Positions 6,942 through 47,001 of a stretch of 64,000 nucleotides of DNA are shown piece by piece. Positions within the stretch are counted from its first letter, which is position 1, and the number at the start of each line of letters is the position of its first letter. Source of the DNA: Candidatus Latescibacterota bacterium (GTDB taxonomy: Bacteria > Latescibacterota > UBA2968 > UBA8231); the NCBI GenBank assembly GCA_965204725.1, contig OZ242005.1:1312001-1376000 (forward strand), given 5' to 3'. The position numbers and the translations under genes are program-made. The notes under the pieces were generated by a model. The model saw only the letters and a program-made list of their open reading frames with translations, ran no database searches and had not been told where the DNA came from.

Positions 6942-8381
6942 ATGAATGTACTACACATCCTCTCCGATCAGCACCAAGCGGCCTGCATGGGCTGCGAAGG
7001 CCACGTGCAGGCGCAGACGCCCAACTTGGATCGGCTGGCCAGCGAGGGGACGCGCTTTGCGGTTGCGTACACCCAGAACCCAATTTGTACGCCCAGCCGC
7101 ATGAGCATCTATACCGGGCAGTACTGCCACAATCACGGTTTCTTCGGTTTGGGCGGGCCGTGCCCGGAGGGGATGCAGAGTTTTCTCGGCCATTTTAGGC
7201 GGCACGGGTACAAGACAGCGGTAATCGGCAAGACCCACGTGCCCAACCAGCCGCGCGATTGGCTGTTGGACCACGTTGACTGCTGGATGTCTGCCACCTC
7301 GACGCCAGTGCCGGCCGCAGGCGGTCTGTCGCCGTATCAAACGTTTCTGGCCGGTGCCGGTCTGTTGGAGCAAAACGACAACTTCCGCATCACCGGCTAC
7401 CCCGCCCTCCATCCCGTTGGTCTGCCTCAGAACCAGTTCCGCGCCCGGCCGTCGGACCTGCCGCTGGAGTTCAATGTCGAGAGTTGGTGCGTGGACCGGG
7501 CGCTTGAATTTATGGAGGGGTGCGCGGGCGACCCCTTCTGTATGCAGGTCTCGTTGCCGCGCCCACACGCGCCCTATACGCCGGATCAGAAGTTCTGGGA
7601 TATGTATGCGGCCGACCTCGCGTTGCCGGAGACCTATTACCAAGATCCATCGGGACGCCCGCCGCATTTCCGCGACATGCATGCGCGGTTTCAGCGGGCT
7701 TGGGCGGAGGAGGCGTGGTCGCCGGAGGAAGGGGCGCGCAATATATGGCGCGGCTATCTGGGCTGCGTGACGCAGGTTGACTACTGCATTGGCCGCCTGT
7801 TGGACTATCTCGACGAGCGCGGCTTGGCCGAAGATACGATAGTCGTCTATAACTCCGACCACGGCGCGTACAGCACGGCTTTTGGCATTCAGGAAAAGGC
7901 TCCCGGGATATGCTCGGAGGCCGTGTGTCGGGTGCCGATGCTCTGGCGGGTGCCGGGCGTTGCGGCTGGGGGTCGGGTTTGCGACGCGCTGGTGGAAAAC
8001 GTCGATTTGGCCCCGACGTTTATGAACCTCTGCGGGTTGCCGGCCATGGCGGGCATGGACGGGGCGGATATTAGCGAGTTGTTGCGGGGCGGAACCGATC
8101 CCGTACATGAGGTGGCCGTAACCGAGCATCGGCACAGCAAGGCGTTGCGCTGGGGGACGTGGCGTTACGTGCATTATCAACCGGAGGATTTCGGGGCCGA
8201 TTGCGGCGAGCTCTACGACTTGGAGGCCGATCCGCACGAGGCCCGCAATTTGTACGGCGAGCAGGCGTACCAAGCGGTCGTCGAGCAGTGCGAAAAACTC
8301 CTGTGCCACTGGCTGATTTCGACGCGGCAGCATCGCACGGCGTTTTTGGTGGGGGCGTGGAATGAGACGAATTACGCCTGA
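6942..8381 (+). CDS. Sulfatase (Cys-type)
   Basis: RBS gaggag before ATG 6942; NVLHILSDQH, CTPSRMS, IGKTH, SDHG, ELYDLEADPHE. Confidence 0.92.
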   Translation: MNVLHILSDQHQAACMGCEGHVQAQTPNLDRLASEGTRFAVAYTQNPICTPSRMSIYTGQYCHNHGFFGLGGPCPEGMQSFLGHFRRHGYKTAVIGKTHVPNQPRDWLLDHVDCWMSATSTPVPAAGGLSPYQTFLAGAGLLEQNDNFRITGYPALHPVGLPQNQFRARPSDLPLEFNVESWCVDRALEFMEGCAGDPFCMQVSLPRPHAPYTPDQKFWDMYAADLALPETYYQDPSGRPPHFRDMHARFQRAWAEEAWSPEEGARNIWRGYLGCVTQVDYCIGRLLDYLDERGLAEDTIVVYNSDHGAYSTAFGIQEKAPGICSEAVCRVPMLWRVPGVAAGGRVCDALVENVDLAPTFMNLCGLPAMAGMDGADISELLRGGTDPVHEVAVTEHRHSKALRWGTWRYVHYQPEDFGADCGELYDLEADPHEARNLYGEQAYQAVVEQCEKLLCHWLISTRQHRTAFLVGAWNETNYA

Positions 8382-9353: not shown

Positions 9354-11171
9354 ATGTACGAGCAATTAGTGGTACACTACGAAGGGCAGACGGAATTCGT
9401 CGCCACGGACCAGCAGCGCACACCCTTGCGGCTGTTCGTCACTTGTCCGGCGGGCTTGGAAGCAGGTGCCGATGTGCGCGTTTCGATCAGCACGTTTCAT
9501 TCTTATTCCCGCAAGTGGACGCTTGCCGATCCTTTTGTCGAGGTCGGCGAGGGCGTGGTGGTGATTGGGCACGGGCTGCCCCGCGACTGGACCGATATGA
9601 CGCGAGGCGGCGATGGCCCGGCCGGCGGCGGGTTGGTGGGAAGGCCGATCAACGAGCTCTACTTGTGTACCATCCAAGTCACTAAGTCGCTGAGCGCGGG
9701 GGCGCGGCTGGTCTTTCCCTTCGGCGTAGTGCCGTCGCCACACGCGGATATAAGCGGCGTCCTGCAAGTGCGGGTGCGGCGGCCCGAGGCTGAGGTTTTC
9801 GACAGGGTGGGCGATCCCATTCCGCTAAGTAATGCCCCCGGCCTGCTGACGCGGCTCGAAGGAAGGATTTCCGCTACGGCGGATGCGGAGGGAAAGCACC
9901 GGGTCGTAGTTTTCGCGACGGATGATCATCTCAATCCAATACCCTCCTACCGAGGGACGGTGGCGGTACAGGCCGACGGTGCGGTCGCCGGGCTGCCCGA
10001 TGAGGTGGCAATCGGTGCCGACGGGCGCGGCGTGGTCGAAGGCGTTGCCGTGCAGAGCGACGGTCCGGTCCGCATCACTGTGCGCGATGTAGCGTGTGGT
10101 TTAGCCGCTCAGAGCGGCCCGACGCAAGCGGTCGGCGAGCGCGGCCACTACTTCGGCGGCATCCATTTCCACACGCGGCTTTCGGTAGATGGCGACCGGG
10201 AGCCGTGCGCCGCTTATGCCTATGCCCGCGATGTGCTCAACCTCGACGTGGTCGCGATGACAGACCACGCGCCGATTGGCCCCGGATGGACCGAATGCTT
10301 GGCGGTCAACGAGGAATTTTACGAGCCGGGCCGCTTTGTGACGATCCCCGCGTGGGAAAGCTCCAATGCCTACGGGCACGCCAACCTCTATCTGCGCACG
10401 CCGGAAGTTGATGGCGGCACTTGGCACTGGAAGCCTGAGCGTTGTCCCTCGGAAGTGGTTTGGGCCGAGGACGTGGTCATGGTGCCGCACCATCCCAACT
10501 GCGGCCAGCCCATCGAATACGGCCAGCACCGCGCGGTCATGGGCAAGACGTTTTACTGGTCGCAATACCACTGGGAGTTTCCCAACAAGCGCGCTCGGTT
10601 GGTGGAAATCGTCCAAGGGCGGGGCAATTTTGAAGCCGACGCGCTTGACGAGTACTGGGGCATTCGCATGGGCGGGTTGGGTGCTGCGGTGCAGGATGCC
10701 TTCGCCCGCGGCTGGCGCTTGGGTTTTGTCGCCGGGACCGACAACCACCAAGGGCACCCAACGCAAAATTCGAGCGGCTACGTGGGGATGACCTGTTTCC
10801 GGGCGACGGAATTGACCCGCGAGGCCGTGTGGCAGGCGATGGACGAGCGTCGGACCTACGCGACTTCGGGCGTACCCATCGTCTGCGACTACGCGGTCAA
10901 CGGCCTGCGCTCGGGCGCGGAGGGCGCGTGGGCCGAGGGCGAGCGCGTGCATTTCTCGGCCAGCCTGCACGGCACCGCGCCGATTGAGCGGGTGGAGATC
11001 ATAGCAAACGGGCAGTGCGTCTGGCAGGACGCGCCCAACGCTTGGGACGTGGAAATCGACGGAGCCGAGTTGCCCGCGCCGACCAGCGAATGGGCCTATT
11101 ACTACCTGCGGCTGCGGCAACAGGATGGGCACCGAGCGTGGTTGAGTCCGGTGTGGTTGGAGAGGGCATGA
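9354..11171 (+). CDS. PHP-fold metallohydrolase (DUF3604 / CehA-McbA-like)
   Basis: GGIHFHTRLSVDG, AMTDH, VPHH, GFVAGTDNH, RRTYATSG, YYYLRLRQQDGHRAWLSPVW. Confidence 0.8.
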   Translation: MYEQLVVHYEGQTEFVATDQQRTPLRLFVTCPAGLEAGADVRVSISTFHSYSRKWTLADPFVEVGEGVVVIGHGLPRDWTDMTRGGDGPAGGGLVGRPINELYLCTIQVTKSLSAGARLVFPFGVVPSPHADISGVLQVRVRRPEAEVFDRVGDPIPLSNAPGLLTRLEGRISATADAEGKHRVVVFATDDHLNPIPSYRGTVAVQADGAVAGLPDEVAIGADGRGVVEGVAVQSDGPVRITVRDVACGLAAQSGPTQAVGERGHYFGGIHFHTRLSVDGDREPCAAYAYARDVLNLDVVAMTDHAPIGPGWTECLAVNEEFYEPGRFVTIPAWESSNAYGHANLYLRTPEVDGGTWHWKPERCPSEVVWAEDVVMVPHHPNCGQPIEYGQHRAVMGKTFYWSQYHWEFPNKRARLVEIVQGRGNFEADALDEYWGIRMGGLGAAVQDAFARGWRLGFVAGTDNHQGHPTQNSSGYVGMTCFRATELTREAVWQAMDERRTYATSGVPIVCDYAVNGLRSGAEGAWAEGERVHFSASLHGTAPIERVEIIANGQCVWQDAPNAWDVEIDGAELPAPTSEWAYYYLRLRQQDGHRAWLSPVWLERA

Positions 11172-11362
11172 ACGGAACGAGACGGGCCGATATAGCGCGC
11201 GGGAGCCGCGTTGCCATCGTGCAGAAGCAAGACCAGCGCACCGGGCGGCTGACCGAGGGCGTCGTGCAGGCCATCCTGACCCGGTCGGCCACGCATCCGC
11301 ACGGGATTAAGGTGCGCTTGGCGACCGGCGAAGTGGGCCGGGTCAAGCGGGTGGGCGGCTAG
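11168..11362 (+). CDS. ywbE: YwbE family (DUF2196) protein
   Basis: MNGTRRADI...KQDQRTGRLTEGVV..ILT.SATHPHGIKVRL..GEVGRV; ATGA overlap with upstream gene. Confidence 0.9.
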   Translation: MNGTRRADIARGSRVAIVQKQDQRTGRLTEGVVQAILTRSATHPHGIKVRLATGEVGRVKRVGG

Positions 11363-13254
11363 AAGTAGTAGAAAGAGTAAACCAACGACGACCCGCCCAC
11401 GCCGACGCAGGCCCCGACGATAAACCCCAAAAAGAGCGGCCGCACTTTCCGATAGAGAATGACCCCGCCGTAGCTAATCAGAACCGACTTGACGAGCCAA
11501 GCGAGGAACATTCCAAACCAGTCGCCGCGCACGGTATTGGTCAGGGCCACGGCCAGCCCCACCGGGTGCAGGGGCCAGCCGGCTAGGCGATGCTGGGCAA
11601 AGGAAAGCAGCCCGGCGAGGCCCGCGCCGATGCCGGTGAACAGGGTGGTCAGGTGTTGGGGCGGGTGCGGGTTGTTGACCGTTTTGGCGACCCAGCCCCA
11701 CTTGCTCAGGGGCGAGGCAATGTAGTACCAGCGGAAGCCGTGCATCATGCCGTGCTGATAGCCCAGCCATATATAGACCGCAACCGTGGTGACCGCGCTG
11801 ACGACGAGGGCCGAGGCGAGGAAAAACAGCAGCTTGCGGGCGCTGATCTTTTCCTTGACCTCCTCGCAGACCTTAAAGGCATGGGCCATCGTGCCCATGA
11901 AGAACAGTTGCACGTCGGCGGCCCACACCATGTTGAGCCCCATCGCCGTAAGCCCCTTCGCGCCGAAATAGGCCGTGCCGAACACATTGGTAAAAAGCGG
12001 CGGGATCGAATGCGGGGCGCGCAGCCGCCCCAAGCCGGTTTGCACCAGCAAGCGCGCCGTGCCCAAAAAGACCAACAGCGCGACCAGCAAAAAGGCCAAG
12101 CTCCAGCCGAGGGCGAGGCCGGTGGCGTGGAGGAAATACGCCATATAGCCCAAGCCGACGACGCCCAGCAGGGCCGAGGTGCGCGGCGAGGGCAGGTGTG
12201 AGTCCAAGCCTTTTGCACCGCGGGCGATGGCGCGCCACTGGTCTTTGAGGAAATCGCGCGACACCCACAGCGACGAGACGATCAGGAAGAGGAGCGCCCC
12301 CATTTGCTGGTGCGACATCAGCACTGAGACCTGCTGGTGCGGCTGGGCCGGGAGGTTGACGGCCACGCCGAAAAAGCCCAACAGGCCGTGTTCGAGATAG
12401 ACGAGCAGGTGAAAGAGCCAGACGCTCAAGAGCACGTGCAGGTTGAGCAGATAGCCGAGGCCGACGACGAGGAAGTTGACGTTGAGCGAGTACGAAATGC
12501 CGAGGCGACGCCAAAAGATGCGCGTGGAGGGGATGCCGAAGTTGTGAATGGCCTCAAAGTCGAACACTTGGTCGAGCATGTTGACGGTTGGGATGAGCGC
12601 GGCGATGAAAAACCCGGCCCAGAACAGGGGATTCTTAAAGAGGCTTTGGCTTGGGTTTGCCACGCTTTCGACCAGTGCGGTCGGCACGACGGCCAAGGGA
12701 TAGACCAAACGCTCGCCGTGCGCCCACTGGTGGTGCAGCAGGGCGACGAGCGAGAAGCTGACCAAGAAGAAGGCGACCATGAAGAGGCCCCAGAACACAC
12801 AAGGGCCGAGCCAAGCCTCCCACGGCAGCGACGCCCCGGCTGGAGCACCCTCGAACAGGTTGCGAATCATCGTCAGGTCGCGTGGGGCGGCCCAGTCGGG
12901 GATGTGGTCCCAGAGCAGTTCGCGCCAGTTGTTTTCCGGGGTGGCGTAGTAGAACACGCCGGCGAGCAGGGGGATAAAATAGCCGCCAAACCCCATGGTC
13001 GGCAGGACGGTGGCGACCATCAGCGCGGCGTAGATGAGGGCAAAGGTCGAAGTCGGCAGCCGCAGGAAGGGGCGTATCAGCGCGAGCAGCAAGGCGGTCA
13101 GCGCGACCCAGAACAGGGCGAAGAGGACGCCGACCGTGTTGAAGTGGTCGGCGTAGCCCGAGTAGTGGTCGAGCAATAGATAGCTGCGGACCCCAATGAA
13201 GTTGTGGCCGACGCACAGCGCCATGGCCAGCGTCCATTCGATGGCCGAGCGCAT
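11359..13254 (-). CDS. Polytopic membrane protein, DUF6785/DUF6784-like putative transporter
   Basis: Many TM segments; YYATPENNW, QWAHGERLVYPL, GWPLHPVG; start placed after ggagg. Confidence 0.75.
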   Translation of the reverse strand: MRSAIEWTLAMALCVGHNFIGVRSYLLLDHYSGYADHFNTVGVLFALFWVALTALLLALIRPFLRLPTSTFALIYAALMVATVLPTMGFGGYFIPLLAGVFYYATPENNWRELLWDHIPDWAAPRDLTMIRNLFEGAPAGASLPWEAWLGPCVFWGLFMVAFFLVSFSLVALLHHQWAHGERLVYPLAVVPTALVESVANPSQSLFKNPLFWAGFFIAALIPTVNMLDQVFDFEAIHNFGIPSTRIFWRRLGISYSLNVNFLVVGLGYLLNLHVLLSVWLFHLLVYLEHGLLGFFGVAVNLPAQPHQQVSVLMSHQQMGALLFLIVSSLWVSRDFLKDQWRAIARGAKGLDSHLPSPRTSALLGVVGLGYMAYFLHATGLALGWSLAFLLVALLVFLGTARLLVQTGLGRLRAPHSIPPLFTNVFGTAYFGAKGLTAMGLNMVWAADVQLFFMGTMAHAFKVCEEVKEKISARKLLFFLASALVVSAVTTVAVYIWLGYQHGMMHGFRWYYIASPLSKWGWVAKTVNNPHPPQHLTTLFTGIGAGLAGLLSFAQHRLAGWPLHPVGLAVALTNTVRGDWFGMFLAWLVKSVLISYGGVILYRKVRPLFLGFIVGACVGVGGSSLVYSFYYF

Positions 13255-13440: not shown

Positions 13441-14346
13441 ATGAGCGAAGTACTGACCCAGTACCGCCGGCACAAAGGGCTGTTGCTGCTAGTGACGCCG
13501 GGGCTGGCCTTTTTCCTCGTCTTTCACTACCTGCCCATGTTCGGGCTGGTGCTCGCCTTTAAGGAGTTTCGCCTGAGCGCGGGCATCTTGGGCAGCGAGT
13601 GGAGCGGGTTGGAGAATTTTTCTCGTCTCTTCGGCGGGGCGGACTTTCCCAATGCCCTGCGCAACACGGTCGTCATCAGTTTCCTGCGCTTGCTCTTTGG
13701 CTTTTTCGCGCCGATCGCGCTGGCGCTGATGCTCAACGAAATCCGCGTCTCTTGGTACAAGCGCACCGTGCAAACGGTGACCTACATCCCCTACTTCCTC
13801 TCGTGGGTCATCTTGGGCGGCATCTTCCTGATGATTTTCTCGCAGAGTGGGCCGGTCAACCAGATCGCCCAACTCTTCGGGGTCTCGGCCATTGAGTTCC
13901 TCACCGACGACTTTTGGTTTATCACAGTGGTCATCGCCACGGGGATATGGCAGGCGGCCGGGTACGGGGCGGTGATTTACTTGGCCGCGCTGGCCGGGAT
14001 TTCGCCCGACCTGTACGAGGCGGCCGTCGTCGATGGGGCCGGGCGCTGGAAGCAGACGATGCACATCACCATTCCGGGGCTGGTGCCGACGATTATCACG
14101 CTTTTTATCCTCAATCTCGGCCACGTGCTCAACGCGGGCTTCGACCAGATCTACAATATGTACAATCCCATGGTGTACGACGCGGCCGACATTATCGACA
14201 CGTACGTCCTGCGGCGGATCGTGCTCATGGACTTCGGGCTGGCCACCGGGGCCGGGCTTTTCAAGTCCGTAGTCGGCTTGTTGATGGTGGTGCTGGCCAA
14301 CTCACTGGCCCGCCGGCTCAGCCGAGGGGAGCAGGGAATATGGTAA
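13441..14346 (+). CDS. Carbohydrate ABC permease (LplB-like)
   Basis: YLPMFGLVLAFK, PYFLSWV, EAA motif LYEAAVVDGAGRWKQ. Confidence 0.92.
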   Translation: MSEVLTQYRRHKGLLLLVTPGLAFFLVFHYLPMFGLVLAFKEFRLSAGILGSEWSGLENFSRLFGGADFPNALRNTVVISFLRLLFGFFAPIALALMLNEIRVSWYKRTVQTVTYIPYFLSWVILGGIFLMIFSQSGPVNQIAQLFGVSAIEFLTDDFWFITVVIATGIWQAAGYGAVIYLAALAGISPDLYEAAVVDGAGRWKQTMHITIPGLVPTIITLFILNLGHVLNAGFDQIYNMYNPMVYDAADIIDTYVLRRIVLMDFGLATGAGLFKSVVGLLMVVLANSLARRLSRGEQGIW

Positions 14347-15218
14347 GCCGCACGCGAGGCGAGAAGGTGTTCAACGTCTTTAACCTGACGCTGTTGGGCT
14401 TGGTCGGGCTGATGGCACTCTATCCTTTTGTGTACACGATCTCCATGTCGTTGAGCAGCGCGGCCGAGGCCATGCGCGCCAGCCTGCACCTGTACCCGCG
14501 GGAGATTTCCCTGACCTCGTACCGCATGGTGCTGTCCAACCCCGAGATCGTCACCGGGTTCACCAATTCCGTCCTACGCACGGTCTTGGGCACGGCACTG
14601 ACCCTCTTTTTTACGTGCCTGACGGCCTACCCGCTGGCGCGGTGCGAAATGCCCCACCGCAGTGCGCTGCTGTTCTTGGTGCTCTTCACCATGCTCTTCA
14701 GCGGCGGCATCGTACCCAACTACTTGCTGGTTAAGAACCTCGGGCTGATCGACTCAATATGGGCACTGGTGCTGCCGCAGATGCTGACGGCCTTCAACAT
14801 CATCGTGGTCAAAAACTTCTTTCAAGCCATCCCCGAAAGCCTCGCCGAGTCCGCCAAGATCGACGGGGCCAGCGAGTTTAACATCCTCTTTCGGATTTAC
14901 GTGCCCCTGTCCAAGCCGGTGCTGGCGACGATTGGGCTGTGGACGGCGGTGGCGCACTGGAACCACTGGTTCGACGCCATGCTCTACATCGCGTCGGACG
15001 AGAATCAGGTCTTGCAGACCTTTTTACAGCGGATCGTCATTGAAAACAGCATCGAGCTGATTGAGCAGGGGCTGGTTGACCCGAACATCACCGAGTTCAC
15101 GCCCGAGACGATTAAGGCCGCGACCGTGGTCGTCACCATCCTGCCGATGCTCGTGGTCTATCCGTTTGTGCAGAAGTACTTCGTGCGCGGGATCATGCTG
15201 GGGAGCGTCAAGGAGTAG
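14340..15218 (+). CDS. Carbohydrate ABC permease (LplC/MalG-like)
   Basis: TMLFSGGIVPNY, IPESLAESAKIDGA, YPFVQKYFVRGIMLGSVKE. Confidence 0.92.
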   Translation: MVSRTRGEKVFNVFNLTLLGLVGLMALYPFVYTISMSLSSAAEAMRASLHLYPREISLTSYRMVLSNPEIVTGFTNSVLRTVLGTALTLFFTCLTAYPLARCEMPHRSALLFLVLFTMLFSGGIVPNYLLVKNLGLIDSIWALVLPQMLTAFNIIVVKNFFQAIPESLAESAKIDGASEFNILFRIYVPLSKPVLATIGLWTAVAHWNHWFDAMLYIASDENQVLQTFLQRIVIENSIELIEQGLVDPNITEFTPETIKAATVVVTILPMLVVYPFVQKYFVRGIMLGSVKE

Positions 15219-43031: not shown

Positions 43032-45107
43032 CTAGCGGCTGTAGCGCAGGCCAAAGAAAAAGCCCGGCCACGCGAAAAGCCCATCCTTCCATTCCCTCTC
43101 GTAGCGGCTACCCGACTCGATCAGCCGGAGATGGCTATCGGTCCACAACTGGTTCAAGGAGACGCCGCCAAACAGCGACAGATGGCGGTGCAAAAAGACC
43201 CCCGTCCCGAGTTTAATTCTGGCCAGATAGTTGTCCCTGTTCAAGCGGTCCAAGCCCAAATCCACCTTGAGCGGCCAAAGGTCAACACCTGCTTTGTAAT
43301 CATCGTTGAGGTCGCGGCTGATCCGGTAGATATGGGTATCGAGGCCGAGGAAAAACCGCTGGCCGCGCTTCTGCATCCCGCCCCCCAAGCCCAACGCCCA
43401 GCGCCGCTGCCCGCCCTCGTCGGCAAAGCCCGTGGTAAAAGAGGTGTAAAACGAGCGGCCGCCCGAGGCGAGGGTGAACATGGTAAAGCCGACTTCGTCG
43501 CGCCAAGTGCTGAAGTTGAAAAGCCCGCTGCGCGAGTAGTTGAGCAGCCCGATGGGCAGGCCGCCCTCGATATGGCCAGAAAGGTTGATCACGCCCACCT
43601 GCAAGCCCTTGACCTCGCTCGCCACGTTCAATACCCCGACCTGAACGCCCTTGACCTCGCCGGCAAAATTGGTCACGGCCACTTGCAAACCGCGGATTTT
43701 GCCGGCGATGTTGAGCAACCCTACTTGTCCACCTTGTAAAGGCCCTAGCCCCCAGCCGCGCACTTGAGAGGCAATGTTGAGAAATCCTACTTGCCCACCT
43801 TGTAAAGGCCCCAGCGCCCAGTTGACGCCCGTGACGGTCGCCTGCCAGCCGTTGACCTCTTTGAGCGCCAAGTTGCCCACCCCACTCATTTGGGTGCCCG
43901 TCCGCGCCCGCGCTTGGTTGACCAGCAAGGCGAGCTGGACGCCGCGGAACGCCGCGTCTTGGGTATTGGTCAGCAGCCCCAGCGACAGCGTGTAGCGCTC
44001 GCCGGCAACCTCGATTCGGCGGCCTAAGGTGATCCGCCGCCGTGAGCCGCCCCGTAGCCTAGCGTCCTCTGGGGACAGGACGCGAAAATCGCCGCCCCGC
44101 ACCTCGGCGAACTCGTCCTTAGTCAGGTCCAACTCAGCCACTTGCCAGCCCGCATCCCACGTTTGCAAAAACAGGGTATAGGCCCCCGGCACCAATCCCA
44201 ACTCGACCGCCCGCCCCGGGGATTTGTTCAGTTCGGCGACTAGACGCCGCTGGGCATTGCGGATGGCGATCTGGCCGGCGAGGCCCTCGTCTAGCAACAG
44301 GCCCGCTGCGTTGCGGCGCACCTCGGTCATCACCACGCCGCCGGTGCCGCGCATCTGGCCCTCGTAAGCTGGATGCTGAGTGCCTCCGGCCGTGCCAATA
44401 GTCCGCGCCCGCGTCTCGTCAAAGGCGAACTGGTAGGCCTCGTGGAGGGTCACTCGGCCATCGCCGGTAACGTCGGCCGCGCCGCGCATCCCGGAAATTA
44501 GATAGTGCGTAAAAAAGGACGCTTCGATCTGGTCCGATTCCTGCGCGGCCTCGTCGGCCGAGCTCGAAGTGAGGAAGGCGTACCCCCGCATGTCAAAGGA
44601 CTCGTCAACCAAAAAGGGCGGCTGGGGCTTGCCCCCTTTGATGCGGGTTATGGAGCCGGAGTTACAGGCATCGAGGACGGCGATGCGGACGGCGGCCTCG
44701 GTCGTCTTGAGCGAGTCGAGCAACTGCTGGTAGCCGAGGTGATCGCCCGCCAAAAGCAGGCCCTCTTCGTCGGCGTGTCCCGAGTAGTAAAGCAGTACCT
44801 CTAAGCGGCCTCCCCACCGACGGGCCGCCTGCACCCGCCGGCCTAGATCGGCCAGCCCCTGCTCAAAAGCGGCCAAGTCTGGGTCGCGCAACAGCACCAC
44901 ATCGGCCGGGTCCAAGCCCCCCATCTCCTGCAAGACCTCGACGAAGTGTTCCGCGTCCGAGACCGCGTAGCGCAACAACTCGCGATCCACCCCGCCGTTG
45001 TTGGCCCCGGCCGCCAGCACCAACCGGCGCATCTCGGCGGCGGCCGGCTGCAAAGACAGGCCCGCCACAACGACGAGCGCGATTAGCACACTCAGCCGCG
45101 ATAGCAT
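43032..45107 (-). CDS. Exported caspase-family (C14) protease with LA_2272-like repeats and beta-rich C-terminus
   Basis: Signal peptide; LRYAVSDA, His motif YYSGHA, Cys motif LDACNSG, SFFTHYLISGMRGAAD; repeats xGxQ(V)G(L/V/F)xN. Confidence 0.88.
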   Translation of the reverse strand: MLSRLSVLIALVVVAGLSLQPAAAEMRRLVLAAGANNGGVDRELLRYAVSDAEHFVEVLQEMGGLDPADVVLLRDPDLAAFEQGLADLGRRVQAARRWGGRLEVLLYYSGHADEEGLLLAGDHLGYQQLLDSLKTTEAAVRIAVLDACNSGSITRIKGGKPQPPFLVDESFDMRGYAFLTSSSADEAAQESDQIEASFFTHYLISGMRGAADVTGDGRVTLHEAYQFAFDETRARTIGTAGGTQHPAYEGQMRGTGGVVMTEVRRNAAGLLLDEGLAGQIAIRNAQRRLVAELNKSPGRAVELGLVPGAYTLFLQTWDAGWQVAELDLTKDEFAEVRGGDFRVLSPEDARLRGGSRRRITLGRRIEVAGERYTLSLGLLTNTQDAAFRGVQLALLVNQARARTGTQMSGVGNLALKEVNGWQATVTGVNWALGPLQGGQVGFLNIASQVRGWGLGPLQGGQVGLLNIAGKIRGLQVAVTNFAGEVKGVQVGVLNVASEVKGLQVGVINLSGHIEGGLPIGLLNYSRSGLFNFSTWRDEVGFTMFTLASGGRSFYTSFTTGFADEGGQRRWALGLGGGMQKRGQRFFLGLDTHIYRISRDLNDDYKAGVDLWPLKVDLGLDRLNRDNYLARIKLGTGVFLHRHLSLFGGVSLNQLWTDSHLRLIESGSRYEREWKDGLFAWPGFFFGLRYSR
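43705..43821. repeat. Imperfect duplication with 66-bp period in the repeat region of the protease
   Basis: gc(g/a)atgttgag..a.cctacttg.ccaccttgtaaaggccc at 43705 and 43771 (LGPLQGGQVGxLNIA x2). Confidence 0.85.
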
Positions 45108-45118
45108 GGATTGTAACT

Positions 45119-45691
45119 CTACCAGATGTCGCTGAGATTCAGTACAAATCCCGGCAAGGTGGGATCGGCCGATAGGGCCTTGAGGTTTTTTAGCACTTCA
45201 ACCGGGAGGTGCGGGCGGTAGATCGCTACGGTTTTTTGCTCTGGGACAATGAGCCAGCCCAGTTGAGTGCCGTTTTCAATGTATGCTGCCATTTTTGCTC
45301 GCAACGATAGCAGATCATCCGAGGGCGACTTGAGTTCGATGACAAACTCTGGACAAAGCGGCAAAAAGCGGTCCTTTTGCGCCTCGGTCAGGGCATCGTA
45401 CCGCCGCCGCGCAACCCACGCGCCATCCGGCGAGCGGACAGAGCGGTCGGGTAGCACAAATCCGCTCGAGGAATCAAAGGCCACGCCGGTGCCATCTCGT
45501 TTGGCCCACAAGCCCAACTGCACGGTAATTTCTGCATTCCGGGCACCCGTTGCTCCTCCCGTTGGGGGCATAATCAGTACTTCTCCCTTTGCATTGCGCT
45601 CAATGCGCATGTCGCGATTGAGCTGACAAAAGTCAAAAAACTGCTCTTCGGTTAGATCGATAACGGGCTGAAAGTTCAGTACGGCTTCCAT
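45119..45691 (-). CDS. Uma2 family endonuclease (DUF820)
   Basis: IERNAKGEVLIMPPTG, FDSSSGF, RSPDGAW, PLCPEFVIELKSPSD, NGTQLGWLI. Confidence 0.93.
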   Translation of the reverse strand: MEAVLNFQPVIDLTEEQFFDFCQLNRDMRIERNAKGEVLIMPPTGGATGARNAEITVQLGLWAKRDGTGVAFDSSSGFVLPDRSVRSPDGAWVARRRYDALTEAQKDRFLPLCPEFVIELKSPSDDLLSLRAKMAAYIENGTQLGWLIVPEQKTVAIYRPHLPVEVLKNLKALSADPTLPGFVLNLSDIW

Positions 45692-45714
45692 AGAGATACC
45701 TCGCCGGGTGTGCG

Positions 45715-46479
45715 CTAAGGGGCCTCTGGTTTGCGTAGGGTGAAGGCAAAAAGGTGGAGGTCGTCGGCCAACGCCACCTCGCCGGCGACCAGCTTGGCTC
45801 GGATCGGGGATAGACCAAAGGGGCGGTCGGCCGCCACCAAGTAAAACCGCTCCCACAGGGGCGCGTCGTCGAGTTCATAGGCCACGTCGAGGGTATCTTG
45901 CGCGGCCAACGGCACGGCTTGGGTCCCGGCTGCCGGCAGGTGCCACGTTGCAGCACCGCGCCCGTCAACGGACAGGATCGCCCCGTACTGCAAGCCACCG
46001 GAGCGGTAAGCGAGCTGCACCCAATCCCCGCGTTGGGCCAAGGCCCCGTCCGGCAAACGCTCCGCACCGCTGGCCAGCTTGCGAAAGACCATCAAGCGCG
46101 GCGTCCGCTCACCGCCCTTAACCCGCAGTGCGGGGGCTTGCGGGGGGTCTTGGTCAAAGAGAGTGGGCACCGCCACTACCGCCAGGATCAGGGCCACGGC
46201 CGGAACGGCCCAAAGGCGATACCCACTCCACGTCCGTTGGGCGCGCCGGCCCTGCGCCCGCTTGCGTTTTAGCTCGATCTGGCCGCGCATCCATTCGGGT
46301 GGGTAGCGCCTAAGCACTTCCTCGTTGGAACGCTCTAGGGCGGCTAGACGCTCCGCGAGCGCGGGGTCGGTCGCCAACTGGCGGTCCAAAGCCGCCAACT
46401 CGGCCTCCGTGCCCTCGCGCAGCAGGTAGCGCTCTAGCTGGTAGTCGCTTATGGGGCGCTGCTCTTCTTGCTGGTTCAT
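45715..46479 (-). CDS. Membrane-spanning anti-sigma factor (ActD-like / DUF4384-like periplasmic domain)
   Basis: N-terminal ISDYQLERYLL helix bundle, one TM segment, GDWVQLAY...LSVDGRG...YELDDAP; ATGA-coupled to the sigma gene. Confidence 0.75.
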   Translation of the reverse strand: MNQQEEQRPISDYQLERYLLREGTEAELAALDRQLATDPALAERLAALERSNEEVLRRYPPEWMRGQIELKRKRAQGRRAQRTWSGYRLWAVPAVALILAVVAVPTLFDQDPPQAPALRVKGGERTPRLMVFRKLASGAERLPDGALAQRGDWVQLAYRSGGLQYGAILSVDGRGAATWHLPAAGTQAVPLAAQDTLDVAYELDDAPLWERFYLVAADRPFGLSPIRAKLVAGEVALADDLHLFAFTLRKPEAP

Positions 46480-46949
46480 GCTTGCTCCATCTCTTGCAGC
46501 GACGCTCTCAGGCCGAGCAATCGCTTGCGCACACCCGACACGGACAGCCCCACTTGCTTGGCTACCTCTTCTAAAGTCATGCCGTCCACGTAGTACAAGA
46601 CGGCCATCGTCCGCGTTGACTCGCGCTGCTGGCCAAAGAGCTTGGCGAGCACGGTGCGCGCCTCTATCCGGCCCTCGGCGTCCTCTGAGCAGGCTATCTG
46701 CTCCAGCAGCGTCGAGTCGGCCGTGGTCTTTCGCCGCTGGGTGTCGCGGATGCGATTGAGGCAGAGGTTGGTCGCTATGCGGTAGAGCAGGCTGGAGGGC
46801 GCGTCGGCCCGCAGGCGGTCGCGCCGCGTCAACAGCCGCACAAACACGTCCTGAGTGACGTCGAGTGCCTGATCTTCGTCGCGCAAAAGCTGCCGACAGC
46901 GACGCAAGACCATCGGTCCGTAGCGACGGTACAGGGTATCTACGTCCAT
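46476..46949 (-). CDS. ECF RNA polymerase sigma factor
   Basis: LYRRYGPMV, ALDVTQDVF, LYRIATNLCLN, DGMTLEEVA..VGLS..GVRKRL. Confidence 0.93.
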   Translation of the reverse strand: MDVDTLYRRYGPMVLRRCRQLLRDEDQALDVTQDVFVRLLTRRDRLRADAPSSLLYRIATNLCLNRIRDTQRRKTTADSTLLEQIACSEDAEGRIEARTVLAKLFGQQRESTRTMAVLYYVDGMTLEEVAKQVGLSVSGVRKRLLGLRASLQEMEQA

Positions 46950-46972: not shown

Positions 46973-47001
46973 TAAACACCAACGGCGGCGCAGGGTGTTA
47001 C
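46973..47001 (-). promoter_or_regulatory. Possible autoregulatory ECF promoter
   Basis: Minus strand A-tract then GTAAC-18 nt-TGTTTA just upstream of the sigma gene. Confidence 0.35.

Follow-up and report, generated by a model that had tools for sequence, protein, structure and literature searches.

Sigma factors of the extracytoplasmic function (ECF) type rank among the commonest signalling devices of bacteria, and for most groups the activating step is unknown. A locus of a Candidatus Latescibacterota bacterium (GCA_965204725.1) raises the question of whether that step could be a cut made by a caspase-family protease encoded in the same operon. On the minus strand of the 64,000-nucleotide stretch analysed here (contig OZ242005.1, positions 1,312,001 to 1,376,000; hereafter the window), the genes for an ECF sigma factor, a putative single-pass, ActD-like anti-sigma factor and a secreted C14 caspase follow one another in this order, with a Uma2 gene inserted before the caspase gene. 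An earlier note on this DNA had proposed that one recognition motif, R-x-(K/R)-G-G, serves three cuts by the protease: its own activation, its release from an anchor and site-1 cleavage of the anti-sigma factor. We found that a loop of the caspase and the linker of the anti-sigma factor share a conserved R-x-K-G, that the third site keeps only a basic residue followed by glycine, and that the three genes form a widespread cassette with its own promoter motif. The cassette and the promoter are solid, and the cleavage code is a good, testable hypothesis; the idea of one motif and three cuts is only partly supported.

Conservation of the three motif sites

Translation of the minus strand, on which all window features described here lie unless marked otherwise, gives RIKGG, RLRGG and RVKGG exactly at the intervals that the earlier note had listed. 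RIKGG (44631..44645; caspase R155–G159) begins 7 residues past the catalytic Cys148, inside LDACNSGSITRIKGG, and the proposed autoprocessing cut would fall after K157. RLRGG (44046..44060; caspase R350–G354), with R352-G353 as its conserved core, marks a boundary at which a cut might release the protease from its anchor. RVKGG (46111..46125; anti-sigma R119–G123), with R-x-K-G as its conserved core and the proposed site-1 cut after K121, is juxtamembrane: it falls past a hydrophobic stretch (residues ~88–108), at the linker–domain junction where a low-confidence segment (107–120) of the structural model ends, and ahead of the first periplasmic strand at residue 128. The surroundings that had been described, namely a C14 caspase domain, repeats at caspase residues 381–531 and an anti-sigma motif between transmembrane (TM) helix and periplasmic domain, are there as well.

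In a crude window gene set of 49 open reading frames (ORFs; 19,472 amino acids (aa)), R-x-[KR]-G-G has four matches, of which three fall within the caspase and the anti-sigma factor (945 aa together), where 0.057 are expected; this figure and those from shuffling overstate the significance, because the motif was defined after it had been seen. When both proteins were shuffled with their composition preserved (n = 20,000), at least three matches arose in 5 shuffles and at least one match per protein in 26. Conservation is therefore the better test. The sole other occurrence in the gene set, RVRGG, stands at residue 16 of an ORF on the plus strand (13914–15218). RRRGG at 45773–45787 was considered as a further site and rejected: it sits in the N-terminal over-extension of the longest Uma2 ORF, in another frame of the anti-sigma gene, and belongs to no real protein.

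The post-Cys motif is nearly invariant. R-x-K-G-G was kept in 112 of 113 caspase homologs, down to 34% identity, the sole exception being a deletion. To compare loci, the caspase alignment was scanned over one genome per species, which matched 601 stretches, of which 437 were confirmed; the locus counts given here refer to the best 79 (designated by L numbers). R-x-K-G-G was found at this site in 77 of the 79, and the remaining two read K-S-G.

The anti-sigma motif is kept in its first four positions. The earlier note had named loss of the motif from homologous anti-sigma factors as the outcome that would speak against it; we found R-x-K-G in 109/109 close homologs, in 133 of 145 distant representatives (clustered at 50% identity) and in 62 of the 70 caspase-linked anti-sigma factors that have the region. 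K-G alone was present in 144/145 representatives and in 70/70 linked proteins, and across the aligned anti-sigma sequences K121 was kept in 146/146 and G122 in 145/146. The five-residue form that had been proposed stands only in part: the fifth glycine was found in 12/145 representatives and the full motif in 7/70 linked proteins, the fifth position being most often Leu. The linker that precedes the motif ranges from ~10 to ~45 residues and is variable in sequence too.

The likeness between the two sites extends to the flanks. In 76/79 caspases the Arg follows a Thr, which is also the most frequent residue at that place in the anti-sigma factors (25/70 loci; 46/146 aligned sequences); at x, both families mostly have I, L or V. 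A longer similarity, RxKGGxxxPx[LF]x[VL], was set aside: it fits the window lineage, and most anti-sigma factors are without the two-residue insertion.

The anchor boundary behaves differently from what a single recognition motif for all three sites would lead one to expect. Among homologs, R-G is kept there in 102/113 and the full motif in 23/113; among loci, R-G is kept in 75/77, a basic P3 residue in 34/77 and the full motif in 3/77. Beyond this R-G, the sequences and the C-terminal domains diverge completely. Moreover, P1 is invariably Lys at the post-Cys and anti-sigma sites and invariably Arg at the anchor site, and this lack of any exchange argues against one interchangeable K/R motif for the three. 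At the level of sequence, the caspase loop and the anti-sigma factor share (T)-R-[ILV]-K-G, and the anchor site shares with them a basic residue and Gly alone.

Architecture of the protease and the anti-sigma factor

The caspase (691 aa; 43032..45107) matches Peptidase_C14 (PF00656) at residues 34–249, with 34 bits against a cutoff of 21.4, and 1573 homologs were found at E <= 1e-3 among 7,999 candidates scored. An AlphaFold2 model (51-row alignment; mean predicted local distance difference test (pLDDT) 78.7) shows, from N to C terminus, a signal-peptide helix, the caspase domain, a low-confidence segment at 150–179, a beta-sandwich at ~259–348, a second low-confidence segment at 352–362 and an all-beta C-terminal half of high confidence. 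The caspase/haemoglobinase fold was recognized by Foldseek with probability 1.00 to MALT1, metacaspases and caspases; a PDB sequence search with the caspase profile gave one weak metacaspase match (7qp0, E 0.0047), over profile positions 21–112 only.

The active site is intact. In the catalytic-dyad segment (44664..44777), His111 (codon 44775–44777) stands in YYSGHA and Cys148 (codon 44664–44666) in LDAC, at the end of strand 140–148 in the model; both residues are invariant in 51/51 sequences of alignment A1, and the dyad is kept in 80/80 locus and window caspases. The acidic residues D51, D146, E186 and E190 are likewise kept in 80/80, in agreement with a basic residue being preferred at P1; the metacaspase counterpart of D51 in the alignment is the Asp of the N-D motif. 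From these conserved residues we predict a P1 specificity for a basic residue. All non-caspase C14 enzymes characterized so far are described in PMC5756287 as cutting after Arg or Lys, with an acidic pocket as the cause.

The post-Cys motif lies in a linker (residues 150–179; 44571..44660) that corresponds to the L2 (intersubunit) linker of caspases. Despite a pLDDT below 50, it is conserved as SGxITRxKGG...FLxDxSxDMxGYAF. In caspase-3 and caspase-7, the intersubunit cut lies about 12 residues past the Cys. Autoprocessing in or after the p20 region is reported in PMC5756287 for caspases and for the orthocaspase MaOC1, which requires it. A third low-confidence loop of the model, at residues 238–255 (44343–44396), carries an invariant Q244-H245-P246 and G254/T255/G256, and resembles the post-Cys linker in being conserved yet unmodelled.

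The remainder of the protein suggests where the protease would be held. A predicted Sec signal peptide (~residues 1–24; 45036..45107) ends in AAA|E in the translation, with residues 2–16 helical in the model. The caspase domain is followed by an immunoglobulin (Ig)-like beta-sandwich (~residues 259–348; 44064..44333), with strands 259–336 at pLDDT 83–91, then by short beta repeats of LA_2272/VC2662 type (residues 381–531; 43515..43967), which are all strand in the model and match the NCBIfam families LA_2272_repeat (31.5 bits, cutoff 25) and, below the cutoff of 140, VC2662_fam (36.5 bits). The C-terminal region (~residues 529–690; 43038..43523) is beta-barrel-like, with long antiparallel strands at pLDDT ~90 and Foldseek matches to the porin Omp32 and a designed TM barrel, and is the presumed outer-membrane anchor. 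This part differs among relatives: Pfam OMP_b-brl was matched in the L019 and L054 caspases, and a match in L025 lay below cutoff. From these features we predict a topology in which the barrel holds a periplasmic protease module at the outer membrane.

The putative anti-sigma factor (254 aa; 45715..46479) was modelled from an 86-row alignment with a mean pLDDT of 87.3, giving four N-terminal helices, a TM-like helix, the low-confidence linker at 107–120 and a beta-sandwich from residue 128. The predicted TM helix (~residues 88–108; 46156..46218) is the hydrophobic stretch LWAVPAVALILAVVAVPTLF, which follows a K/R-rich segment and is partly helical in the model; by the positive-inside rule, the N terminus would be cytoplasmic. 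The periplasmic Ig-like beta-sandwich (residues 124–254; 45718..46110) has strands 128–249 at pLDDT >90. No family, and no anti-sigma match, was found for the protein in Pfam, and its NCBIfam match to anti-sigmaE is weak (E 0.051). Its position, its topology and this weak match point to an anti-sigma factor, with sigma binding as a prediction. Some homologs carry the NCBI label 'ActD-like protein', and the family has 3000 representatives (50% identity clustering) at E <= 1e-3.

For the periplasmic domain, Foldseek returned only generic Ig-like or RhoGDI-like matches. DUF4384 was weakly matched by 15/86 family members (best E 1.8e-4), and in the ESM Atlas the domain led to unnamed clusters at 0.90 and to DUF4384 at 0.77. 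Within residues 124–254, the polar residues S170, D172, H180, D204, P207 and E210, in SxDGRG, HLP and YELDDAP..ERF, are invariant in 86 sequences and could form a binding site for a ligand or a protein.

A cassette across phyla and its promoter

The sigma factor (157 aa; 46476..46949) matches ECF sigma regions 2 and 4 in both Pfam (Sigma70_r2, E 7e-16; Sigma70_r4_2; Sigma70_ECF) and NCBIfam (TIGR02937, E 5e-25), and the start of the anti-sigma gene overlaps its stop by 4 nucleotides (nt). The Uma2-family endonuclease gene that follows (longest ORF 45119–45856, likely start 45691; Pfam E 2e-39) is an insertion (45119–45691) that splits the anti-sigma gene from the caspase gene; it has weak PADLOC PDC-S03 matches. 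In most related loci, the anti-sigma and caspase genes abut or overlap; gaps of ~640–670 nt separate them in L010 and L011.

Genes of the loci were called by hidden Markov model (HMM) searches of ORFs with a positional filter, and in L014, L021, L037 and L075, where an over-extended caspase ORF defeated the filter, they were assigned by hand. Sigma and anti-sigma genes stand directly upstream of the caspase gene in 68 of the 79 loci, and an anti-sigma gene stands upstream in 72. These loci span Latescibacterota, Gemmatimonadota, Acidobacteriota, Fibrobacterota, Myxococcota, Spirochaetota and others. The seven without an upstream anti-sigma gene are L070, which lies at the edge of a contig; L040, the second copy of a genome whose other locus (L020) is a full cassette; and L047, L048, L053, L066 and L071, all Fibrobacterota (Fibrimonadaceae or Fibrobacterales).

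Downstream of the caspase gene, no constant fourth gene was found among 43 ORFs, of which 4 are TonB-dependent-receptor genes and 39 were Pfam-scanned together. The 39 are heterogeneous (Omp85/DUF4252, small outer-membrane barrels, DUF2807, various enzymes and many without a Pfam match), and the core cassette therefore comprises three genes. In L017, L022 and L023 (~9520–13000), a second caspase paralog with the same ITRLKGG loop stands ~1.7 kb downstream, and a gene for an Omp85/DUF4252/DUF5686-like outer-membrane protein lies between the two caspases. In L067 (174–1406) and L068 (1160–2380), the caspase-family HMM matches a protein of 406–410 aa (E 1e-59 to 1e-61). This protein has neither D-x-C-x-S-G nor any Pfam family, opens the operon before sigma with the promoter motif ahead of it, and probably matches only the repeat/barrel half of the caspase HMM.

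Alignment of the regions upstream of the sigma genes revealed an ECF-type promoter motif, GTRACA-N16-GTGTT, in 63/79 loci, mostly just before sigma. In the window it reads GTAACA-N16-GTGTT (46975..47001) and lies 26 nt upstream of the sigma start codon. This is the sole match in the window; no second site was found in the 64 kb, including before any receptor gene. At up to one mismatch, 0.75 matches per window are expected by chance, so the single window match means little and the recurrence across loci carries the weight.

The motif also marks genes outside the core arrangement. In L047, L048, L053, L066 and L071, the five Fibrobacterota loci whose caspase gene has no sigma/anti-sigma pair next to it, the motif stands immediately ahead of that gene. 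It also precedes genes for TonB-dependent receptors (Plug domain) in L031, L040, L041, L056 and L076 and DUF3450 genes in L041, L056 and L076, with the receptor and DUF3450 sites at L031 11905; L040 3227; L041 10457 and 14938; L056 10343 and 14782; and L076 7200 and 11534. Judging from the predicted promoter activity, the cassette appears to be autoregulated and the caspase appears always to be a target of this sigma type; the receptor genes hint at a regulon that includes TonB-dependent uptake. GTRACA-N16-GTGTT offers an immediate means of mapping the regulon in any genome that bears the cassette.

A candidate site-1 protease and its alternatives

How might these parts work together? We tentatively regard the locus as an autoregulated three-gene envelope-signalling cassette, in which an ECF sigma factor, an ActD-like anti-sigma factor and an outer-membrane-tethered, paracaspase-like C14 protease act together and the protease has a dedicated site-1 role, a reading to which we would give slightly less than an even chance. 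The protease would be made as a zymogen. An envelope signal would activate it, probably through self-processing of the linker at T-R-x-K(157)|G-G, 9 residues past the catalytic Cys, and the active enzyme would then cleave the anti-sigma factor within the flexible segment that joins membrane helix and Ig-like domain, at (T)-R-x-K(121)|G, which matches the linker site. An RseP-type site-2 protease would take the remaining periplasmic stub of ~13 residues as its substrate and free the sigma factor; freed sigma would transcribe its own operon from GTRACA-N16-GTGTT and, in some relatives, TonB-dependent receptor genes too. The proposal is weakest in the cut at R352|G353, by which the protease would leave its anchor. 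Cleavage of the anti-sigma factor by the caspase at R-x-K|G is plausible, though we stop just short of favouring it, all the cleavage events being drawn from conservation and analogy.

Several points, besides the choice of the motif after the fact, weigh against this proposal. Conservation and analogy underlie it throughout. K121 lies only ~13 residues from the inner-membrane helix, and the protease is apparently tethered to the outer membrane; release from the anchor would solve this problem of distance, yet it has the weakest motif support. One K/R-tolerant pocket accounts for the split between Lys and Arg at P1 no better than three residues under separate constraint would. Where metacaspases have their specificity-pocket Cys, whose importance is stated in PMC5756287, the alignment shows Ala48. 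Other [KR]-G pairs of the caspase are conserved too, R174-G175 in 95/114 and R208-G209, which lies within a helix of the model, in 114/114. All three motif sites lie in or adjoin low-confidence AlphaFold linkers (pLDDT <50 at caspase 352–362), but a low pLDDT says little about real flexibility when the alignment has 51 rows. The earlier note had also looked to covariation of the motif in cognate pairs, and none was detectable, with only 8 of 71 pairs lacking Arg at P3, three of them from one clade; the caspase columns that differ in these P3-deviant pairs are clade markers of L030, L044 and L058.

The statistics of the shared word add to this side of the balance. R.KG is the sole conserved three-of-four word common to the caspase and anti-sigma families, but when the conserved letters of the anti-sigma factor were permuted, at least one shared three-of-four word arose in 523 of 2000 trials. 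A permutation limited to the low-confidence loops of the caspase gave 298 in 200,000, a restriction made post hoc. In an unbiased profile–profile comparison with hhalign, the best local alignment falls exactly on both motif segments and is not significant (probability 0.5%, E 0.11). The word match is suggestive, statistically not compelling. The same comparison found no homology between the two Ig-like domains, the motif segment being the sole alignment. A complex prediction for caspase 25–350 and anti-sigma 105–254, given as alignments, scored 0.00 against a mark of 0.32; run without controls, it counts neither for nor against binding.

The promoter allows a different role for the caspase. 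Because its gene stands behind the sigma promoter, the protease could be an output of the sigma factor and not its trigger; the sigma factor would be switched on otherwise, by a housekeeping site-1 protease or by a ligand on the Ig-like domain, and R-x-K-G would serve another partner or cap the domain. The caspase gene is always found behind a promoter of this type, in the operon or, in the five Fibrobacterota loci, with its own copy, and the same promoter precedes other envelope genes (TonB-dependent receptors and DUF3450). The K-G lies only 6 residues ahead of the first strand of the domain, and a Lys that is never exchanged for Arg is what one typically sees in a structural or binding role. 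This account leaves unexplained, however, why the sole conserved motif of the anti-sigma linker should match the most conserved loop motif of the neighbouring protease, flanks included, and why the protease should be linked to sigma and anti-sigma in 68/79 loci across phyla while the downstream genes vary. Membership of the regulon is, moreover, compatible with a role as activator: FecIRA-type signalling has an outer-membrane transducer that is itself under the control of the sigma factor. We consider it unlikely that the caspase is an output only.

A second alternative to caspase-mediated site-1 cleavage takes the shared word as a mimic. The anti-sigma segment would resemble the protease linker without being cut and would act as a docking site or pseudo-substrate, either inhibiting the protease, which would place the caspase under the control of the anti-sigma factor, or recruiting it for signalling by binding and release. 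Consistent with this, T-R-h-K-G (h, hydrophobic) is common to the anti-sigma factor and the post-Cys segment of the caspase, Lys and Arg are both strictly invariant, as for a binding epitope, and in Citreicoccus (L049) no ECF sigma gene adjoins the genes for an ActD-like protein and the caspase, so that the pair may function alone. Against it, the catalytic and pocket residues are kept in 80/80 caspases, which indicates that proteolysis matters; where an Arg/Lys-directed protease has a flexible linker with an exposed basic-x-Lys-Gly next to it, a substrate is the simpler reading; and L049 retains the sigma-type promoter before its ActD-like gene. Docking of this kind seems improbable to us. 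Coincidence, by which R-x-(K/R)-G-G would have arisen by chance in the window lineage from three unrelated basic-Gly turns, each under its own constraint, draws on the lineage-specific occurrence of the full motif (anchor 3/77 loci; anti-sigma 7/70 loci and 12/145 representatives), on the non-significant permutation of conserved words (523/2000) and on the abundance of Arg and Gly in the proteins (8.1% and 8.5%, respectively, of the window gene set), but we hold it to be similarly improbable in view of the three matches against 0.057 expected, the tight linkage of the two genes and the retention of R-x-K-G in both families across phyla, to ~35% identity, in variable or low-confidence linkers.

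Site-1 cleavage by the caspase would have precedents in part. ECF sigma factors co-transcribed with a single-pass anti-sigma factor, whose bulky periplasmic domain sits on a flexible linker, are known from RseA, which DegS and then RseP cut, from RsiW, which PrsW cuts, and from the FecR/FoxR types, and loss of the periplasmic domain is described as what licenses the site-2 protease (PMC11506125). RseA-type systems use a serine or metallo site-1 protease, whereas the window cassette would use a dedicated, operon-encoded cysteine protease of clan CD. A comparable proposal exists for DdvA of Myxococcus xanthus, whose periplasmic CHAT domain is proposed in PMC11506125, as an unproven site-1 step, to cleave the linker between its own membrane helix and periplasmic domain. 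In DdvS/DdvA, the protease is a TPR-CHAT fused to the anti-sigma factor, is narrowly distributed and controls an island of cyclic-oligonucleotide-based anti-phage signalling system (CBASS) and clustered regularly interspaced short palindromic repeat (CRISPR) genes; in the window cassette it is a separate C14 protein with its own anchor, found in many phyla.

Caspase-like proteases that stand beside a sigma factor and act on it or its inhibitor are also known from phage defence. In the craspase system, the TPR-CHAT protein Csx29 cuts Csx30 and frees CASP-sigma, and in the SAVED-CHAT/PCaspase/PCc-sigma cascade PCaspase is itself activated by cleavage, as described in bioRxiv 10.1101/2023.06.23.546230. 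Those systems are cytoplasmic and triggered by CRISPR or cyclic oligoadenylate, whereas the window proteins, with a signal peptide and a TM helix, belong to the envelope. No cas or CBASS genes were found at the window cassette, where PADLOC gave only a weak generic caspase match (E 3e-4). The arrangement also recalls FecI/FecR/FecA, in that an outer-membrane protein, an inner-membrane anti-sigma factor and an ECF sigma factor form a unit and the promoter precedes a receptor gene in five loci; it differs in that its outer-membrane component is a protease. In Pfam scans, the window cassette showed neither FecR nor DUF4880 and lacked a TonB-dependent transducer. Within the papers that our literature search covered, among them the one on ECF reclassification, we came upon no account of a C14 protease that is a separate periplasmic protein and is paired with an ECF sigma and anti-sigma factor.

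By structure, the caspase is closest to MALT1, which led the Foldseek matches (3v4o_A, E 1.7e-4, to the caspase domain), followed by metacaspases and caspase-7. MALT1 caspase–Ig3 constructs align over ~400 columns, with a TM-score on the target of only 0.37–0.42 and a root-mean-square deviation of 13–16 Å over both domains. Both proteins have a caspase domain followed by an Ig-like sandwich and an Asp two residues before the catalytic Cys. The activity of MALT1 is not known to depend on linker cleavage. Its cleavage consensus, given in PMC6125328 as hydrophobic-x-P/S-R|G/A, resembles the proposed R-x-K|G, although P1 is Arg in MALT1 and would be Lys in the window caspase. The two share only 10–14% identity, and the window protein differs in being secreted and in having a beta-barrel anchor. 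Among the marks of a paracaspase, it has the caspase domain and, in the model, the Ig-like domain, but neither DxCR nor a death domain; its Cys motif is DAC[A/N]S and its N terminus is a signal peptide. The marks that PMC5756287 gives for metacaspases, a DxCH motif and the specificity-pocket Cys, are missing as well, the homologs reading DAC[A/N]SG and the pocket position being Ala48. Like the orthocaspases, which are defined as prokaryotic p20-type homologs with a basic P1 and autoprocessing (PMC5756287, PMC6426788), it is a prokaryotic C14 protein with an intact dyad and extra C-terminal domains; its autoprocessing is a prediction from the conserved, low-confidence 150–179 linker with R-x-K-G-G. 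Its sequence thus fits the loose term orthocaspase and is neither that of a metacaspase nor that of a paracaspase.

If the caspase does act as site-1 protease, a single mechanism of activation, open to testing and with a defined scissile bond, would hold for the thousands of ActD-like anti-sigma factors. For C14 caspase homologs in bacteria, of which hardly any physiological substrate is known, it would supply a natural substrate and an envelope function other than death, and the release of sigma factors by caspase-like proteases would extend from phage defence to ordinary envelope signalling. A bolder version sees a trans-envelope device in at least six phyla, with the anchored, paracaspase-like enzyme as the dedicated site-1 protease and a (T)-R-h-K|G in the anti-sigma factor that copies the activation linker, so that activation of the zymogen and release of sigma would follow one code, and, in Myxococcaceae, with the ActD-like protein and the caspase as members of an act-like operon, whereby the long-unexplained ActD (and ActE) would acquire a biochemical role in C-signal timing; we regard this as doubtful, if worth entertaining.

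That last part would also provide a lead on the Myxococcus act operon. In Citreicoccus inhibens (L049, 2955–10190), genes for a GGDEF protein, a sigma-54 activator response regulator and a GNAT acetyltransferase precede the ActD-like gene and the caspase gene on one strand. The act operon of Myxococcus xanthus, whose products we take to be ActA to ActE, controls the level and timing of the C-signal. The gene order of L049 matches the published five-gene description of that operon ('five co-transcribed genes'; PMC3824092), although the window pair is partnered by an ECF sigma factor, not by a sigma-54 activator. Equating ActD and ActE with the ActD-like protein and the caspase would follow from this match. 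The ActD-like protein of L049 has the full architecture and reads TVRIKGA at the motif, and the promoter motif of that locus lies at 6955–6981.

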